Sequence record: PQ724394.1
DNA: 64,000 nt
DNA from: a phage
Strand: one strand, 5' to 3'
This document shows positions 3,814 through 56,480 of the stretch, in pieces (position 1 is the stretch's first letter; the number at the start of each line of letters is the position of its first letter). Below the pieces are notes generated by a model. The model searched no databases. It saw nothing but the letters and a program-made list of their open reading frames with translations, and was not told the DNA's origin. The position numbers were made by a program, and so were the translations under genes.

Positions 3814-3904
3814 TATATTTTTCCTTTTTCAATTCATTAATAAGTTAGATAATTATAAACTGCTAGATTAAAGCGAATAAATATTAATTTAACAGGAGGA
3901 TAAC

Positions 3905-4105
3905 ATGGGCAGTATTTTTTACCAAATCTGGAAATTGGCAGAAAAGAAAGACAAGAAAATGATGTTAGGTTTTCTTGCGCTAGACGTATTCCTTTGGAAT
4001 CTTCTAGTAGTCCCTGTAGCCGCTAGCCAAGGGGTAGTTTTACCAGCGGTTACAATGGAACACGTGTTAAGCATAATTGGATTCTTTAGCGGAATCCCTG
4101 CTTAA
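3905..4105 (+). CDS. hypothetical small hydrophobic protein (66 aa), opposite strand
   Basis: Strong AGGAGG RBS 7 nt before ATG at 3905; hydrophobic segment; sits in the 56-61 intergenic gap. Confidence 0.35.
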   Translation: MGSIFYQIWKLAEKKDKKMMLGFLALDVFLWNLLVVPVAASQGVVLPAVTMEHVLSIIGFFSGIPA

Positions 4106-6294: not shown

Positions 6295-6324
6295 ATAGTA
6301 TCACTACCATAGACCGTTGTAAAC
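6295..6324 (-). promoter_or_regulatory. early promoter cassette
   Basis: Full conserved motif copy upstream of sp. Confidence 0.65.
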
Positions 6325-6325
6325 T

Positions 6326-6565
6326 TTATTTTAACGAATCTTCCAAATAAATTTTACGGAATTTACGTTTTGTCTGACGAATCTGACGCTTAGTAGGCTT
6401 CACAGGAAATTCGAAGAACTCTACGTATTCTTGTTCATAATCGTTGTGACCAACTGAAAGAACTAGTTCCCAGCTGCTTACGGTGCGTTGGATAAACATA
6501 TTATGCTTACCAAAAGATTTATTCCAAAAGGAGCTAGGGGTTGGCTTCATTAATACAATATTCAT
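6326..6565 (-). CDS. hypothetical protein (79 aa)
   Basis: ORF in the 61-41 interval. Confidence 0.4.
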   Translation of the reverse strand: MNIVLMKPTPSSFWNKSFGKHNMFIQRTVSSWELVLSVGHNDYEQEYVEFFEFPVKPTKRQIRQTKRKFRKIYLEDSLK

Positions 6566-6706
6566 TTATTCCTCGTCTTCATGTTTATGAGCAATTTCTT
6601 CGAATTCGCTATCGCAGTCTAAACAGGTTGCATTGTCCCAAGCATCAAATACTGCCTGGTCTTCACATACTGAACAACCACATACTACACATTCAACCTC
6701 TTCCAT

Positions 6707-6910
6707 TTAGATTTCCTCAATGCGGGCATCATATTCAAAAACTTTATTGTCATTAACAAAGGCTTTAACCAGTGCATTATTCACTTCTGCATACTGCACT
6801 GTAACCCATTCAATCATTTTTTGGTCACTAACATCCAGCGCAGTTTCTTTGGTAAACATATTACCGTTTTCAAACCAACCAATAAACACTACGTTCTCTA
6901 ATTTATACAT
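6707..6910 (-). CDS. dmd: Dmd-like antitoxin (discriminator of mRNA degradation, 61.5)
   Basis: 67 aa; resembles T4 Dmd (VVF.GWF.N..MFTKE...QYAEVNKALVKAF); conserved position just before gene 41. Confidence 0.6.
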   Translation of the reverse strand: MYKLENVVFIGWFENGNMFTKETALDVSDQKMIEWVTVQYAEVNNALVKAFVNDNKVFEYDARIEEI

Positions 6911-9067: not shown

Positions 9068-10232
9068 CTAAATCCATCTCTTCTAAATCGTTTTCAATAT
9101 CTGCAGCACTTTGAGCGTCACCACTCAATTTAACTGCAACATTCTTAGAGACACGAGAGTTAATAAGGTCGTTCACGGCATCATCGACTTCTTTAATAGA
9201 ATTAATTGCACCAAGCTTATACTTATTCTCGATTGCTTCACGGAACGGGGCATGTTTAAACAGCGGTCCCCAGAACTCGACACAATCGGTAGCTTTAGCA
9301 CGCCATGATTTTTCTTCTTGAACCATTTCACCCGTGGTTTCATCAAGGAATGCACGATTATACCAGCCGGCTTTAGGTTTCACGACAAAGCCAATATCAG
9401 TAGCCATTTCGAGCAGACCACTAAATGGGTCGATACCACCTTCAAAGTTCACAGTAATTGGGAACGTTGATTTCTCTTTAACAGTACGAGATTTTTCGGC
9501 CTTCAGGGTGAAGTCATAACCAGTGAGCTCGGTACCATCTTTAACCTGACGTTTAGAGATAAAGAACACAGTAGAAGCAGAGTACAGAATACCAGTACCA
9601 CCACCCATAATCTCTTTAGGATACATTCCACCAATTTCCATAGCCGTATGGTTAATTGCTACACAAGGAATATCCTTGATAGTCAGATAAGGTGTTACGA
9701 TACGGAACAGAGATTTCAGAGACTTAGCTCGAGTCATATCACCTACAACTTTCTCGTTCAAAGCATCTTCGGTTTCTTTCTTAGAAGCGGTGTTACCGAT
9801 GGAGTCGATAAAGATAATAACCTTTTCGCCACGAGTAATTTCTTCTAATTGGTTGGTCATGTCAACCTTCAGTTGTTCGACTGACTGGATTGGCGTATGA
9901 ACCACACGTTCCAGGTCAACACCCATTGAACGGAAATAAGATTCTGAAGCACCGAACTCAGAGTCATAGAACAAGCAAATTGCGTCTGGATATTTCTTCA
10001 TATATGCCGCAACCATAGTTAATCCAAACAACGTTTTAAAGTGTTTAGACGGTGCAGCAAAGATTGTCAAACCTGATTGTAAGCCTGCATTCAACGCACC
10101 ACCCAATGCAATATTAAGCATAGGAATACGAGTAGGAACTTCGTCACGACCATTAAACAATTTAGATTTGGTCAGATCGGCAGTCATTTTAGAAGTAGAA
10201 GCTTTAATCAAACGGGATTTTAAATCGGACAT
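9060..10232 (-). CDS. uvsX: UvsX recombinase (RecA-like)
   Basis: 390 aa; N-terminus MSDLKSRLIKASTSK nearly identical to T4 UvsX. Confidence 0.95.
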   Translation of the reverse strand: MSDLKSRLIKASTSKMTADLTKSKLFNGRDEVPTRIPMLNIALGGALNAGLQSGLTIFAAPSKHFKTLFGLTMVAAYMKKYPDAICLFYDSEFGASESYFRSMGVDLERVVHTPIQSVEQLKVDMTNQLEEITRGEKVIIFIDSIGNTASKKETEDALNEKVVGDMTRAKSLKSLFRIVTPYLTIKDIPCVAINHTAMEIGGMYPKEIMGGGTGILYSASTVFFISKRQVKDGTELTGYDFTLKAEKSRTVKEKSTFPITVNFEGGIDPFSGLLEMATDIGFVVKPKAGWYNRAFLDETTGEMVQEEKSWRAKATDCVEFWGPLFKHAPFREAIENKYKLGAINSIKEVDDAVNDLINSRVSKNVAVKLSGDAQSAADIENDLEEMDLDD

Positions 10233-49354: not shown

Positions 49355-50314
49355 TTATTTTTCGAAAGGACGAATTAAATGTTGATTACGCTTAAACCGG
49401 TTGATGTAGTCACTTTCACCTAGGGTCCTATACATATTCACTACAGCTTGGTAGTTTTCCCAAGCATACTCACGGAACCATCCAGAAGTAATGGAGGTAC
49501 AGACTTTTTCCAGAGCAACATGGAAGCTCACGGATGGAGAGATATTAAAGTCATTAGGAACCTGCGAACGCTCCAGAGCAAGTACACATGCTTCTTCATA
49601 AACGCCGGCCAGTTTAATAGCTTCAGGCAAAGCTTCAAACTTCTCACGTGAGGTCATGACTTCAGAACCATCCTTCATATAAAAGGTATACGCTGGACGT
49701 CCGGCTAATGCCACAGCTTCATGGATAGAGTCGTGGTCTAATGTATAAATGGTATCATTAAAGAACGATGATTTGTTTACATCCAATTTAGGATGAGAAT
49801 AGCTCAACGTTTCTTTCTGACGTTGCAGCATGATTTCTTGGAGCTCTTCATTCAAGGTTACACCTTTATTACGAAGATATTTGATGTGGGACATCGTCTT
49901 CAAAAAGAAAGGGTTGTTCTTCAAATAACGATGGCTCATTTTGATGGCCAGACAGATATCAGGTGTGGCCCAATAGAAACCCGTAAGACGGTCCTTTTTA
50001 ATATGATTTTCGGCATATTTCAGGAGACGATAACTTGAAGTGAAATCTTCGCCCTGAAGCTCACCGGTGATTTCTCGTACGTTAGTCAGGGCACGGACGA
50101 TATAAGCTTCAAAATAGGTTTCTTTACCATTGTGCATACATTTAAAGGCCTGGACATCAGGGTTATCCACAGGAACATGAGCGCCGAACATCCGGGCTTT
50201 AAATTGATTCCATGAGCCTTGGTCGGCAATAAAATCCCAATCAGAATTTTCGATATACTTACTTTCAATCAGACCAGCGTGGTGCAGTGCACGAGAACCA
50301 ATAACTAGCATCAT
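49355..50314 (-). CDS. hypothetical protein (319 aa)
   Basis: Long ORF; loose G-S...D-x-D pattern near the N-terminus. Confidence 0.5.
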   Translation of the reverse strand: MMLVIGSRALHHAGLIESKYIENSDWDFIADQGSWNQFKARMFGAHVPVDNPDVQAFKCMHNGKETYFEAYIVRALTNVREITGELQGEDFTSSYRLLKYAENHIKKDRLTGFYWATPDICLAIKMSHRYLKNNPFFLKTMSHIKYLRNKGVTLNEELQEIMLQRQKETLSYSHPKLDVNKSSFFNDTIYTLDHDSIHEAVALAGRPAYTFYMKDGSEVMTSREKFEALPEAIKLAGVYEEACVLALERSQVPNDFNISPSVSFHVALEKVCTSITSGWFREYAWENYQAVVNMYRTLGESDYINRFKRNQHLIRPFEK

Positions 50315-50516
50315 AATATTTTCCTCATTAATAAAGACGAGTTACTTCATATTTACCCAGTTCAGATTTTTTTGCTTCAATACGCGTTGCGGCTAGATTA
50401 GCAGCCTCTAGTGAAGAAAATTGGACCACTTGGGAAGTATTCTGCCTTACGCCACCTTGTGGGTGAGTAACAAAAACAATAAGAACATTATACATAATAT
50501 TTTCCTCAGAGTAAAC

Positions 50517-50756
50517 TTAAATTTCAGCAACGTAATCGTTATGCAATTCCCACATATCATCAGAATTATTCTTAATGATAGGAATTATCTCATTAGAGAT
50601 TTCTTCTGCATAAGGGTCGTTGATACAGTGGGCATCTTCAAAACGAACACCGTAATCAGACTTCTTATAGGCAAAGCCATAAATCTTTTTAAACTTGGCA
50701 CGACTAATGCGTACCGGCTCATCAGACTTATCAGACAGTGGAGAGTAATACCACAT
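50517..50756 (-). CDS. hypothetical protein (79 aa)
   Basis: GAGGAG RBS. Confidence 0.45.
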   Translation of the reverse strand: MWYYSPLSDKSDEPVRISRAKFKKIYGFAYKKSDYGVRFEDAHCINDPYAEEISNEIIPIIKNNSDDMWELHNDYVAEI

Positions 50757-50800
50757 AATGTTCTCCTCATGTTTGAGTAAGGTAATAGTAACACAAGTTT

Positions 50801-51130
50801 TTAGAGTTGTACATCACTTCTGCAATATTCTAAAAATAATTTATCGCTGTCTACTGTATCCCAACGTCTCCAAGATGGGTTCCAGACCAAAGCGTTGTCA
50901 CCACAATCATTGAGCTTAAAATGGTCATAGTACATAGCTATGTGTCTAGTCTCGTCACCAGAGAACCCTAGTATAGGCTCGCCATGGGTATGATACATAT
51001 GATGGTGCATTGAGAGGTCGCATTTATAAAACATCTCACGTTTACCACGGACGAACAAGAAAGCTTGTCCATTCATATAGAATTCTTTATCTGTTTTCAA
51101 AAGATATTTGAATACTGAATCTTTGTGCAT
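50801..51130 (-). CDS. hypothetical His-rich protein (109 aa)
   Basis: AGGAGG RBS before ATG at 51130; HHHMYHTH cluster. Confidence 0.45.
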   Translation of the reverse strand: MHKDSVFKYLLKTDKEFYMNGQAFLFVRGKREMFYKCDLSMHHHMYHTHGEPILGFSGDETRHIAMYYDHFKLNDCGDNALVWNPSWRRWDTVDSDKLFLEYCRSDVQL

Positions 51131-51161
51131 AAGTCCTCCTACCACATCCTTGTGGTTATTA

Positions 51162-51386
51162 TTAACAGCTACTTGGGTACCAGATTTTACCATCAGAGCG
51201 AGCAACGAAGGTACGACCAGCTTCTTCACCATAACAAGAGCTATTCAGCCAATCTTCAAGACGAACTTCACCGTCGTAATCATCTAGCTCAACACCAAAA
51301 TCCTGAGCAGAAGCCATATCTTTTACTTTCTTATACAGCGCAGCCAGTTCAAGAGCTGCTTTTTCTAATTCATTAATATTAGACAT
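51162..51386 (-). CDS. small protein, member of tandem family with C-terminal W-x-x-S-S-C tail
   Basis: AAGGAA RBS; ends ...KIWYPSSC. Confidence 0.5.
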   Translation of the reverse strand: MSNINELEKAALELAALYKKVKDMASAQDFGVELDDYDGEVRLEDWLNSSCYGEEAGRTFVARSDGKIWYPSSC

Positions 51387-51395
51387 TTTTATTCC

Positions 51396-51626
51396 TTAGC
51401 AAGACATAGAGGAGTTAAACCAGAAACCCTGGCCATCATTGATGCCGTAATCACTGCGAATCCAGTCATATTCTTCATATTCTTCGCTAGAAGCCGGAAT
51501 ATAACGTTGGAAACGGTCTGCGGCGTGTAAATTAAAAATTTCACCGGTTTTATCGGCCAACTGCTCGCCTTCACAGATTAGTGCACGGATTTGGTCTTCG
51601 ATTTCTTTAACAGTTTTAGCAGTCAT
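51396..51626 (-). CDS. small protein, tandem family member
   Basis: AAGG RBS; ends ...GFWFNSSMSC. Confidence 0.5.
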   Translation of the reverse strand: MTAKTVKEIEDQIRALICEGEQLADKTGEIFNLHAADRFQRYIPASSEEYEEYDWIRSDYGINDGQGFWFNSSMSC

Positions 51627-51635
51627 TTTATTACC

Positions 51636-51833
51636 TTAACATTCGTAAGAGGAGGACACCCAAGAGGTACCACTAATAGTAATACAACCGTTATAAAGCG
51701 TTATATGTCGTTCTAAGTCACGAGCACCATCAATATAGATATCAGCTTCTTCGCGTTCTTCTTTACAAATCTGAATAACGTTTTCAATAGCCGCCGCTGC
51801 GGTACGGATTGCACAATCTAATTCACGAGACAT
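51636..51833 (-). CDS. small protein, tandem family member
   Basis: AAGGAA RBS; ends ...TSWVSSSYEC. Confidence 0.5.
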   Translation of the reverse strand: MSRELDCAIRTAAAAIENVIQICKEEREEADIYIDGARDLERHITLYNGCITISGTSWVSSSYEC

Positions 51834-51842
51834 AATATTTCC

Positions 51843-52124
51843 TTAACATTCAGAAGAAGAGGACACCCAACCGCCAGTTGCGAGGTCAGTTGTATAGTCA
51901 TGAGTATTAACAATAGCCCATTCAGGATGACCATCTTCTTCCCAATGGGCAAGGTCAGCTTTCAAGGCGCCAGGAGAATAATAGTCACCGCCCATACCGC
52001 GAGCAGGGTATATATTAAAATGAGTCTCATATTTGTCTGCAATTTCCTCGGCACGACGAATAGCTTCATGAATTTCTTTTACTGCGGCCAGAAGCTCTGG
52101 ATGGTTATGATTATCATTCATCAT
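51843..52124 (-). CDS. small protein, tandem family member
   Basis: AAGGAA RBS; ends ...GGWVSSSSEC. Confidence 0.5.
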   Translation of the reverse strand: MMNDNHNHPELLAAVKEIHEAIRRAEEIADKYETHFNIYPARGMGGDYYSPGALKADLAHWEEDGHPEWAIVNTHDYTTDLATGGWVSSSSEC

Positions 52125-52133
52125 AGCTTTTCC

Positions 52134-52424
52134 TTAGCACATTGCCGAAGAGGAGACCCAGGCACCAACTGTAACGACGCCATTTTCAACTTCACCGCCA
52201 TTGTTTTCAATTTCATCTTTAAACCACTGGGAGCATTCATAACCAACAGGGTAGTAGGTACGTCCTGAGCCATAATCACCTGTTCCGAATTGAATACCGT
52301 ACTTATCGGCAATAGCTTCACATTTGGATTCGATGATATCTACTTTACCGAGCAGGGCATAGATAGCTTTTTCTGCAGATTTCTCGTCGTTGTATTCAGG
52401 GATTTCAATTTCAATTTTATTCAT
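52134..52424 (-). CDS. small protein, tandem family member
   Basis: AAGGAA RBS; ends ...GAWVSSSAMC. Confidence 0.5.
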   Translation of the reverse strand: MNKIEIEIPEYNDEKSAEKAIYALLGKVDIIESKCEAIADKYGIQFGTGDYGSGRTYYPVGYECSQWFKDEIENNGGEVENGVVTVGAWVSSSAMC

Positions 52425-52810
52425 GATTTACATTCCTTAATAAAGGTTTCAAGGTCATTACGTTTGGTTTGTTTTACATACTCATTATAATTAGCCATCT
52501 CTAAAGCATATCTCTTACGGATGGGGGCATTCAAAGCATTTGTATGGCAAATATCATACACTAGAGGGATAAAATAAGCCACGACAGCCGGAGCGATTAT
52601 CATATAGAAACCCATCTCAATAGGCATGACTCCTTCGATTGCGGCCATAACTGTGGTCATTACCAGACCAACCAGACCGCCGAGCATACCTGTGACAATT
52701 CCCGTGAATAAGGAAATAGCAATATCATATTCAGCCAATTGATAAACATGCGATGAAAGACTAGGCCGTTCCATTTTGAACCTCTTTAGCGTATTCACGG
52801 CATTCAGCAA
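52421..52810 (-). CDS. hypothetical membrane protein (129 aa)
   Basis: Hydrophobic helices; C-terminal FIKECKS. Confidence 0.45.
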   Translation of the reverse strand: MLNAVNTLKRFKMERPSLSSHVYQLAEYDIAISLFTGIVTGMLGGLVGLVMTTVMAAIEGVMPIEMGFYMIIAPAVVAYFIPLVYDICHTNALNAPIRKRYALEMANYNEYVKQTKRNDLETFIKECKS

Positions 52811-53303
52811 TAAAGCGATTAAGCTTCCGTTGTTGTTTACGACTTTCTAATGTGTACTCAGCAGTTAAGATACCAAGCTCGGCTTTATCATAATTTTTAA
52901 TATCGGTGTAAGATGGTCGACGGTCGACCATTCCAAATACATCACCATTTTCTAAAGCCACATAGCATACTAAATGGTAATCATCGTCTGCTATATTAAG
53001 AAGCACACAATCATTGCTCTCATTTAAAGAATATACTGAATAACGTAGTCCAGCGAATTCCACTCGTTGAATAGCCAGATTTACGTCAATAATTTCCAAA
53101 GCATCTTCAAAAGAAAGGTCTTCAGCTAAAGCAAAAATAAAAGGTAATTTGGTAGTATCGCCACGGCTAGATGTTCTGCTTAAGAAATCGTTTGAATAGC
53201 CTAGGTCTTGGCGAATTCTATAAAGAACTGAATTGGTTTCATGGGAAAGACCACTATTTTTAAACCAATCAATATTTGATATAAGGTTATCATATAAACT
53301 CAT
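52761..53303 (-). CDS. hypothetical protein (180 aa)
   Basis: ORF; C-terminal region contains FIAECREY. Confidence 0.45.
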   Translation of the reverse strand: MSLYDNLISNIDWFKNSGLSHETNSVLYRIRQDLGYSNDFLSRTSSRGDTTKLPFIFALAEDLSFEDALEIIDVNLAIQRVEFAGLRYSVYSLNESNDCVLLNIADDDYHLVCYVALENGDVFGMVDRRPSYTDIKNYDKAELGILTAEYTLESRKQQRKLNRFIAECREYAKEVQNGTA

Positions 53304-53351: not shown

Positions 53352-53945
53352 TTACTTAAGTGAATTGATGTAGTCTTCGATATCGGCTGAAGTCGTATCC
53401 ATTCCAACTTGAGGGCCTTTAAACGTTTCTACACGCATCAGTGTATCTTCAATATCAATCTTAGTCAGTGCAGCGATTTCAACAACGTCATCAGCAGTAG
53501 CAATACCAAGGGCGGCCATATTACGAGTTTCACGGATGTACTCGAGCTTAACGGCCAGTTCCTGACGAGAGTCATCAAGTTCCTTGACCTTCAGTTTAAT
53601 TTCATTACGCATTTCGATATAATCGTCAGCTTTCTTACGAAGTTGAGTAGCTGTACGACGATAAAGGAGGCCAAGTTTAGCATGCACCTGGACATCTGCA
53701 CCTTCTTTAATCAGTTTACGAATTTCGCGTTCTTTAGAAGCAGCCAGTTGGTCTTTTTCATTTGCCAATGCACGAATGCGTTTTTCTTCATTCACAGACT
53801 TAACATGAGCAGTCTGGAGTTCGGTAATTTTATCAATCAGGGTAGAAGCAGCTTTAGTATACTGGTCTTCGATTGACAGGTTCTGAGCCATCGCGGTACC
53901 CAGTTTAGAACGGATGAATTCAACAATTTTCTTTAAAGTATTCAT
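53352..53945 (-). CDS. coiled-coil protein, possibly PspA/IM30-like
   Basis: 197 aa from [10 protein letters not shown]; heptad-rich; GAAGGAAA RBS; early promoter (GTTTAC-N18-TATAAT) upstream. Confidence 0.45.
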
Positions 53946-53988
53946 AGTATTTCCTTCAGTCGGTTGGTATTTTGTAATCCATGAGGAC

Positions 53989-54018
53989 ATTATACCCTGT
54001 CCTCTGAGGGTTGTAAAC
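53989..54018 (-). promoter_or_regulatory. early promoter (GTTTAC-N18-TATAAT)
   Basis: Textbook sigma70-like spacing upstream of 53352-53945. Confidence 0.6.
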
Positions 54019-54020
54019 AT

Positions 54021-56189: not shown

Positions 56190-56480
56190 TCGGGGTTCCA
56201 CCTGCTAGGCAAGTGTTTGTACGAAACGCCGGGATTCGAACCCGGTTATTAAGCAGTTGACGCTACTCAATATTTTTTTAAAAGGCCATATCTCGACCAT
56301 ATCCGAACGTTCCGTCAAAAACGCTACTCGGCTTACGGCAAAGATATTTCCTCGAATCGATAATTCGATGCGCCGTTTCAGCTGTGATAGTAAAGAACCA
56401 GAACACAGTAAAACTGTGGGAGGAACTATACTCCAGGGAACTTCAGTCCGACGACTTACCGGTAGCGACCCGGTTTCTTG
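56190..56480 (-). ncRNA. possible small stable RNA(s) with tRNA-like T-arm, adjacent to tRNA cluster
   Basis: CCGGG-TTCGAAT-CCCGG T-arm-like element at 56229-56245 without foldable anticodon or D arms; several palindromes; analogous position to T4 stable RNAs C and D. Confidence 0.3.

Follow-up and report, generated by a model that had tools for sequence, protein, structure and literature searches.

Cys-tailed small proteins encoded in tandem upstream of a predicted nucleotidyltransferase gene point to a conserved two-part phage module

Five tandem genes and their shared tail

A tandem array of five small genes, whose products all end in a short tail rich in Ser and closed by Cys, occupies positions 51162 to 52424 of a 64,000-nucleotide stretch of phage DNA (sequence record PQ724394.1; the whole stretch is referred to here as the window). 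The original prediction, made from the letters of this DNA, had described five tandem minus-strand open reading frames (ORFs) of 74, 76, 65, 93 and 96 amino acids (aa), each with its own ribosome-binding site and a C-terminal Cys, and we found all of them where it had placed them. They are listed here with their matches to PHROG families, the expect values (E) of these matches and the ratio of nonsynonymous to synonymous substitution rates (dN/dS).

52134..52424, minus strand: ORF5, type A, 96 aa, containing ...GDYGSGRTYYP... and ending ...GAWVSSSAMC; PHROG 899, E 1.1e-22; dN/dS 0.10
51843..52124, minus strand: ORF4, type B, 93 aa, containing ...ARGMGGDYYSPG... and ending ...GGWVSSSSEC; PHROG 899, E 1.3e-18; dN/dS 0.30
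51636..51833, minus strand: ORF3, type C, 65 aa, MSRELDCAIRTA...TSWVSSSYEC; PHROG 4882, E 2.4e-36; dN/dS 0.06
51396..51626, minus strand: ORF2, type D, 76 aa, ending ...GFWFNSSMSC; PHROG 899, E 5.8e-15; dN/dS 0.13
51162..51386, minus strand: ORF1, type E, 74 aa, with the terminal KIWYPSSC; PHROG 899, E 3.7e-10; dN/dS 0.03

The locus is that of a Dhakavirus, a JS98-like T4-type coliphage, and positions 50800-52900 are 94.6% identical to phages dhabil and CLB_P2. The array belongs to the plastic "e.1-e.8" region, which is flanked by lysozyme e/nudE and by the tRNA cluster, and stands directly 3' of an e.3-like membrane-protein gene whose stop codon is overlapped by the start of ORF5 (ATGA). An AAGGA-type Shine-Dalgarno sequence precedes each of the five ORFs, and the four internal junctions follow one design, in which the TAA stop overlaps the Shine-Dalgarno sequence (TAAGGA or TAAGGT) and the spacing from stop to ATG is exactly 9 nucleotides (nt). 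ORF1 carries two copies of the motif, an internal DWLNSSC-YGE in addition to the terminal WYPSSC, a point that the earlier reading had missed. Among close relatives the most variable copy is ORF2, which in phage dhabil is replaced by a divergent allele of 70 aa.

Chance does not readily produce such an arrangement: the six-frame translation of the window holds 438 stop-to-stop segments of 50 aa or more, and nine of these end in Cys, four of them matching W..SS..C$ and one W..SSC$ ($ being the C-terminus), whereas composition predicts 3e-4 such Cys-tail ORFs, and the motif occurs nowhere else in the translation. We conclude that the five ORFs are real protein-coding genes. They are tandem paralogs within a family of small acidic alpha/beta proteins that is confined to phages.

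Conservation of the tail at the protein level

The tails resemble one another in their DNA as well as in their residues, and this raises the question of which of the two is being conserved. The likeness could be the side effect of an element repeated at the nucleotide level, for example a junction left by recombination or duplication or a hairpin (UCCUC:AAGGA) that sequesters the ribosome-binding site, or the ORFs might not be real genes; the similarity of the array tails in DNA, the overlap of the TAA stop with the next Shine-Dalgarno sequence, the fixed 9-nt spacer and weak UCCU:AGGA pairing in two folds are what such an element would leave behind. However, in a comparison of 35 members of the family, drawn from 14 loci, the tail Ser codons swap between TCN and AGY, Cys is encoded by TGT or TGC and the stop is TAA, TGA or TAG, while W, S, S and C are fixed and the sequence 3' of the stop is not conserved. 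Moreover, RNA folding of six junctions gave structures no more stable than shuffled controls (z -0.17 to +2.1), and the motif is kept over 141 protein clusters at 50% identity or less. The nucleotide-level conservation put forward in the original prediction therefore stands within this array and breaks down at synonymous sites across the family; because these sites diverge family-wide, we attribute the similarity of the tail DNA to protein conservation together with recent duplication. A repeated element read in another frame, the very outcome that the prediction had named as fatal to itself, does not agree with the codon switches, and the codon analysis effectively refutes this explanation, to which we assign a negligible chance.

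Comparison with the orthologs of phage VR7 gave the whole-gene dN/dS values listed above (0.03-0.30; 0.11 for the neighbouring enzyme gene described below), which also run counter to a nucleotide element. The five ORFs are thus under purifying selection and their tail is under strong protein-level constraint, as seen in the codons, the clusters and dN/dS. A paralogous family with a shared C-terminal tail is upheld by these data; its description as "diversifying" is not, the replacement of the ORF2 allele in dhabil aside.

Extent and structure of the Cys-tail family

We defined the family by a C-terminal W-x-(S/A/P/N)-S-S-x-x-C or W-x-x-S-S-C in which Cys is the last or second to last residue, a definition that all five window ORFs fit. 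An exhaustive profile search over 1.84 billion representative proteins, with clusters at 50% identity or less, yielded the 141 clusters mentioned above, all of 64-175 aa. Cys is the final residue in 126 of the 141, and among these W stands at -7 in 124, S at -4 in 125 and S at -3 in 124, with S, A or P at position -5 and Gly-rich positions -9/-8; about 10 of the remaining clusters retain W-x-x-S-S/T with one extra residue past the Cys. The hallmark of the family is therefore a nearly invariant C-terminus, G-x-W-(V/I/L)-(S/A/P)-S-S-x-x-Cys-COOH. A tblastn search recovered type A (ORF5-like) from 367 phage records and type E (ORF1-like) from 245; these phages are without exception large myoviruses of Enterobacteria, Aeromonas and others. 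Types A and E occurred in all eight Straboviridae arrays that we read, including those of distant Aeromonas phages, save for E in Mosigvirus PhAPEC2, and both recur in Phapecoctavirus. The members examined are all acidic (isoelectric point 4.0-4.8, net charge -6 to -16).

ORF1, ORF2, ORF4 and ORF5 match PHROG 899 over their full length (E 3.7e-10 to 1.1e-22) and ORF3 belongs to PHROG 4882. These two families, and likewise pVOG 2412-2416, are catalogued small-protein families annotated as "unknown function". Scans of the five ORFs against Pfam, NCBIfam and PADLOC gave nothing significant; in particular, none of the five matches a model of a known defence or anti-defence family in PADLOC-DB or NCBIfam.

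The bodies in front of the tail had been described as unrelated N-terminal halves, which is correct in part. Profile comparison with hhalign after removal of the tails linked ORF5 with ORF4 (A-B, 97.5%, E 7.5e-12) and ORF4 with ORF2 (B-D, 92.5%), so that these three share a body, whereas the bodies of ORF3 (type C) and ORF1 (type E) could not be linked to other types in this way. By eye, all five, and likewise the larger members of 139-175 aa, show a helix and after it a strand of the pattern A-[D/E/S]-x-x-x-Φ-x-Φ (Φ, hydrophobic); we therefore take the helix, this first strand and the strand of the W-tail as the minimal core of the family, into which variable segments are inserted. The larger members contain no known domain and hence offer no informative fusion.

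AlphaFold2 predicts ORF5 to be a compact domain of two helices and a small sheet (predicted local distance difference test score, pLDDT, 88.7; predicted template modelling score, pTM, 0.74), with no known structural relative. In this model A-W-V-S forms the last beta-strand and S-S-A-M the terminal turn. The tail is placed inside the compact fold instead of hanging free, which does not agree with the notion of an appended tag.

Some members near the limits of the family were also observed. On a marine contig (L010; L numbers are our locus labels) a family member ends ...EWTSSSQN without Cys, whereas a related IMG/VR contig (L061) has ...EWTSSSQNC; close to the module, the same marine contig has two more small genes with Cys-containing products (2447-2647 and 3858-3992), namely a Cys_rich_CWC protein (PF14375) and one of 44 aa that ends ...HGKWC. 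In Pseudomonas phage phiPsa347 a 138-aa protein ending ...WEASGGCEWEESAQYGSDYGWNV is encoded between two tail-family genes (L016 1750-2166) and could be a degenerate type E member minus the terminal Cys.

A predicted nucleotidyltransferase gene linked to the tail genes

In each of the lineages a gene for a protein of about 300-320 aa follows the array, and its orthologs carry the Pfam domains DUF7277 and DUF7275 (PHROG 2141). In the window the array stop (51162) and the start of this partner gene (50314) are 848 nt apart on the same strand, with the array upstream.

49355..50314, minus strand: partner gene, 319-aa DUF7277 + DUF7275 protein (PHROG 2141), with a predicted N-terminal nucleotidyltransferase (NTase) domain of the Pol-beta fold and a helical C-terminal domain

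The AlphaFold2 model of the partner is a confident one (pLDDT 90.4, pTM 0.84). G6-S7 after beta1, D25-W-D27 in beta2 and E69 in the strand 64-73 are invariant in 26 homologs down to about 45% identity, and in the model they occupy the hG[GS], DxD and third-carboxylate positions of the Pol-beta superfamily. We consequently predict, from sequence and model, that the partner is an enzyme with a Pol-beta NTase fold and an intact catalytic triad. The C-terminal DUF7275 is more conserved still (...YDHDSIHEAVA..., ...VYEExCVLALERSQ..., ...CTSITSGWFREYAWENY...), with invariant His, Asp and Glu and two invariant Cys. Searches of PDB sequences with the partner (phmmer and profile) gave no match, 26 partner homologs matched only DUF7275/DUF7277 in Pfam at E <= 10, and eight homologs had no match in PADLOC-DB at E <= 1. 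Since no known NTase family was matched at E <= 10, the partner is not a sequence member of DUF1814/MenT/AbiEii or of RlaP. GenBank calls the homolog of Acinetobacter phage phi1_092060 (PQ885451.1, L014 2162-3115) a "DefenseFinder protein", without explanation; PADLOC-DB gives no match for it.

How regular is the association of this gene with tail genes? We counted it at 80 independent partner-anchored IMG/VR loci with 6-kb flanks. At 72 of the 80, one to five tail ORFs lie on the strand of the partner. The set holds 192 same-strand tail ORFs upstream of the partner and 0 downstream, the nearest at a median of 391 nt from the partner start. The eight exceptions comprise two loci with variant tails directly upstream (...NWDSSTC and ...EWESSESSEC), four with tail genes on the other strand, one that is truncated and L051, the only locus of the 80 truly without tail genes. 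Starting instead from tail-family proteins, we could assess four contigs, and on all four the partner lies immediately downstream; one has four tandem tail genes (...GWVPSGLNC, ...GWEPSGLDC, ...GWVSSSQNC, ...GWVPSGLNC).

The linkage is not confined to one genomic backbone. It is found in the nrdD/nrdC region of an Aeromonas Tulanevirus and, in a different neighbourhood again, 3' of the RNA ligase 1 gene of the Aeromonas Emmerichvirinae phage AS-yj, as well as in a marine Tara contig, Pseudomonas phage PspYZU05, a metagenomic phage, Acinetobacter T4-likes, Otagovirus phiPsa347, Ralstonia RSP15 and Pseudoalteromonas J2-1. In Phapecoctavirus tuntematon the order is types B, E and A and then the partner, and Menderavirus Moby shows the linkage but with the tail gene downstream of the partner. 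It ends at the most distant partner homologs (25-35% identity), in Streptomyces, Gordonia, Noahvirus and KVP40-like phages. The partner comprises more than 2,200 protein clusters and is present in 734 phage genomes, the tail family in several hundred genomes; carriers of the module include T4-like phages of Escherichia, Klebsiella, Enterobacter, Aeromonas, Acinetobacter and marine hosts and the unrelated Phapecoctavirus, Otagovirus and Menderavirus.

Together, these observations point to the tail genes and the DUF7277-DUF7275 gene being a conserved, undescribed two-part phage module. The PHROG, pVOG and Pfam entries of these families record neither the tail motif nor the linkage, and full-text searches of PMC and bioRxiv found nothing on DUF7275, DUF7277, the RB69 ORF names, the PHROG ids, the tail motif, Cys-tailed T4-like paralogs or the linkage. 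The families themselves are already catalogued, all with the annotation "unknown function"; the gene linkage is the new result.

The small proteins might act apart from the NTase, for instance as anti-defence or host-takeover factors, the tail being structural or metal-binding (the terminal Cys completing a site on oligomerisation) and the linkage being co-inheritance in an early accessory cassette. The proteins are small, acidic, apparently early, tandemly duplicated and encoded in a plastic T4-type region, and a small, acidic, early and duplicated profile is common to many known phage inhibitor proteins; structure prediction puts the W of the tail and its hydrophobic residue in a beta-strand of the fold, tail genes are missing from the vicinity of some partner homologs, and T4 has no array in its e.3-e.2 region. 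Passive co-inheritance, however, poorly explains a linkage that survives with its upstream same-strand polarity in unrelated phage families and neighbourhoods, and no PADLOC or annotated-family match identifies such a factor. A metal site, for its part, would need several chains because only one Cys is universally conserved. We regard independent action as rather unlikely, somewhat less so than the other two specific proposals considered below.

Distant partner homologs adjoin genes for an RNA ligase, a phosphoesterase or phosphatase, PNKP or an Acb1-type 2H phosphoesterase, or a tRNA cluster. Such RNA-repair-type neighbours lie at L018 4245-5267, L019 765-2310, L020 1564-2223, L013 322-1260, L021 5347-7484 and, in L110, at 6304-6765 and 9171-10199. 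An RNA ligase gene stands beside the partner or close to it in RSP15, DSS3_VP1, Limpid and L110, and a PNKP gene in L013, but in the window and the Tevenvirinae loci neither adjoins the partner. The recurrence of these neighbours suggests an RNA-end-related role for the partner.

Neighbouring genes and expression signals

The features that surround the array and separate it from the partner gene are as follows.

53989..54017, minus strand: sigma-70-type promoter-like site, TTTACA-17-TATAAT, matching at 11/12, upstream of the e.6-like gene
52421..52810, minus strand: e.3-like predicted membrane-protein gene, translationally coupled to ORF5
51141..51156, minus strand: small stem-loop (ACCACAAGGATGTGGT) directly 3' of the last array gene
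50801-51130, minus strand: 109-aa gene, PHROG 9796, between array and partner
50517-50756, minus strand: 79-aa gene, PHROG 3723, between array and partner
50328-50495, minus strand: 55-aa gene, PHROG 20278, between array and partner

In Tevenvirinae the array is inserted next to the e.3-like gene, which in other lineages does not belong to the module; in the e.3-e.2 region of T4 that was compared there is no array, and e.3 leads straight to e.2. The three intervening genes (50328..51130) belong to families without an annotated function and are not kept as parts of the module in other lineages, with Aeromonas, Pseudomonas and metagenomic loci having a tail gene that abuts the partner directly. 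The mechanical ORF of 143 aa at 50801-51232 on the minus strand overlaps ORF1, and its alignment to PHROG 9796 begins only at residue 35; this, a preceding AGGAGG and a match to dhabil_187 indicate that the real gene is probably the 109-aa one at 50801-51130. In the same region phage dhabil has an extra insertion of about 200 bp encoding the 75-aa dhabil_188, which is not a member of the tail family.

The stem-loop between array and partner gene has counterparts: unrelated phages of Aeromonas, Pectobacterium and Pseudomonas likewise have a GC-rich hairpin right after their type E gene (GGGCTCTCCGGAGCCC, GGGTCATAGGACCC, GGGAGCCTAGGCTCCC), at about 3980-4010 in L007, 4035-4060 in L008, 4012-4040 in L009 and 3956-3985 in L012. 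It may be a conserved terminator or RNA-processing signal.

The site at 53989..54017 is the only strong promoter-like site that we found. It matches the sigma-70-type consensus and is, by its sequence, a candidate early promoter of a transcription unit running from e.6 through e.3 into the array. From e.6 to the end of the array the genes are closely spaced or coupled, and the T4 late promoter TATAAATA does not occur between 47104 and 55509. From the lack of a late promoter, the sigma-70-type site upstream and the tight packing we infer that early transcription of the array is likely. Nor do these signals, or the proteins themselves, which show no visible N-terminal signal or hydrophobic segment, favour a packaging or export signal, one of the functions first proposed for the tail.

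Two annotations nearby deserve comment. The e.6-like gene (PHROG 1203; 53352-54020, minus strand) is listed with 222 aa, and its family profile begins at residue 26; as the promoter-like site falls inside the annotated 5' extension as well, the true start is probably near 53945. At 56219-56315 on the minus strand, beside normal tRNA-Arg, tRNA-Asn and tRNA-Met, ARAGORN predicts a "tRNA-Phe" of 97 nt whose anticodon, AAA, is at position 37. Its odd length and anticodon may reflect an erroneous call, a tRNA that contains an intron or a small stable RNA of the kind represented by T4 rnaC/rnaD.

What the tail may do

What would require a folded small protein to keep so nearly invariant an end, and to keep it next to one enzyme gene? 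Our tentative answer, to which we give a probability of roughly 0.45, is that the tail docks into, or is modified by, the DUF7277-DUF7275 enzyme. We propose this engagement because no part of the small proteins is as conserved as the tail, because the class of enzyme transfers nucleoside monophosphate (NMP) to hydroxyls, and because several small genes lie upstream of one enzyme gene, an arrangement typical of the substrates or partners of a modifying enzyme. A recognition or modification role was among the functions originally suggested for the tail, and it is the best current reading.

The conserved tail would then be the common element through which each paralog engages the partner enzyme. 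Its W and the hydrophobic residue that follows would anchor the last beta-strand, so presenting the Ser-Ser hydroxyls and the thiol and carboxylate of the terminal Cys to the enzyme, where these groups could act as acceptor or as blocker; nucleotidylylation of a Ser hydroxyl, a chemistry typical of the enzyme class, would be the most likely event. The variable bodies would give each paralog a separate target or role. Physical interaction, covalent modification and the biological role of the module are alike inferred here. As the module looks early and accessory and adjoins RNA-repair genes in distant phages, it could plausibly serve the phage in a contest with its host over RNA or translation.

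Two more specific versions of what happens at the tail may be weighed. The enzyme may covalently modify the Ser-Ser...Cys tail of the folded proteins by Ser O-nucleotidylylation, perhaps followed by elimination and attack of the Cys to give a C-terminal thioether ring, with one enzyme serving the one to five substrates of an array. We think this unlikely, but if true it would be a previously unknown phage-encoded system of protein post-translational modification. Alternatively, the small proteins may be non-covalent regulators of the NTase, akin to antitoxins or adaptors, that block or steer the enzyme with the tail as binding epitope, much like MenA1, a 68-aa protein that occludes the active site of MenT1. 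One to five copies with differing bodies for a single NTase gene are a poor fit to a 1:1 inhibitor, however; the partner has no Pfam match to DUF1814/AbiEii at E <= 10, the small proteins are alpha/beta and unrelated to the helical MenA1, toxicity of the NTase is without evidence, and the invariant Ser-Ser and Cys suggest chemistry rather than a hydrophobic binding epitope. We rate regulation of this kind as improbable, on a par with the covalent proposal.

If docking or modification of the tail by the enzyme holds true, a widespread unannotated pair of gene families becomes a defined system of one Pol-beta-type NTase and variable small Ser/Cys-tailed proteins. This offers inexpensive experimental access to genes that every record now labels hypothetical, and several of the phages that carry the module are used or considered for therapy. 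It could reveal a new protein modification, or a new means of phage control over an NTase whose substrates may be RNA or tRNA ends.

Comparison with known systems

RlaP, a phage NTase of the Pol-beta fold, is defined by its RNA-repair gene context (PMC7824862). The partner resembles it in being a phage-encoded protein of the predicted Pol-beta fold whose distant homologs adjoin RNA ligase, PNKP and phosphoesterase genes. It differs in that none of the 26 homologs has a match to the RlaP family at E <= 10 and in that no RNA ligase lies beside the partner in the window; the passage on RlaP that was read makes no mention of small Cys-tailed partner proteins (PMC7824862).

The MenAT1 pair, in which the NTase MenT1 (DUF1814/AbiEii) is accompanied by the small MenA1, is a toxin-antitoxin system that likewise couples an NTase with a small partner protein. 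MenT1 has signature motifs III (a lysine) and IV (an Asp) (PMC10435456). The partner has an invariant K125 spaced like the motif III lysine and no evident motif IV Asp, and it is no sequence member of DUF1814/AbiEii, with none of the 26 homologs matching PF08843. In addition, the small proteins here are acidic alpha/beta proteins with a Ser/Cys tail, present in one to five copies per enzyme, whereas MenA1 is a helical hairpin; and MenAT1 is found in bacterial chromosomes, the module described here in virulent phages.

The arrays also bring to mind the precursor arrays of ribosomally synthesised and post-translationally modified peptides (RiPPs). Among the lanthipeptides and the RiPPs with an aminovinyl-cysteine (AviCys) ring, epidermin ends ...S-x-x-C-COOH, and prochlorosin loci hold many precursors. 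Here, likewise, several small tandem genes accompany one enzyme gene and the products have a Ser-rich motif and a C-terminal Cys; the tail Ser at -3/-4 from the terminal Cys fits the ring-forming spacing of lanthionine and AviCys, which is a resemblance only. The window proteins, however, are predicted to be folded (as in the ORF5 model) and are not of the leader-core type; their conserved part is C-terminal and their variable part N-terminal, and the adjacent enzyme of the module has an NTase fold. The window genes scanned from 49355 to 53303 matched nothing beyond DUF7275/DUF7277 and chance-level hits, and hence no LanB-, LanM-, LanKC-, LanL-, LanC- or LanD-type enzyme was found among them; the 55-aa and 79-aa intervening genes and the e.6-like gene, scanned against PHROGs only, all fall into families annotated as of unknown function.

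A chemical parallel is offered by MntA-HepT, GlnE and GlnD, Pol-beta NTases that put NMP on a side-chain hydroxyl (Tyr) of a partner protein, which in MntA-HepT is encoded adjacently. The chemistry is of the same kind as that proposed for the Ser-Ser tail, where it is hypothetical; Tyr is modified there and Ser would be modified here, and no partner of the HEPN, PII or glutamine-synthetase type is present. Although sequence or anatomy sets it outside each of these groups, the module resembles both the pairs of an NTase with a small partner, as in MenAT1 and MntA-HepT, and the RiPP-like arrays.

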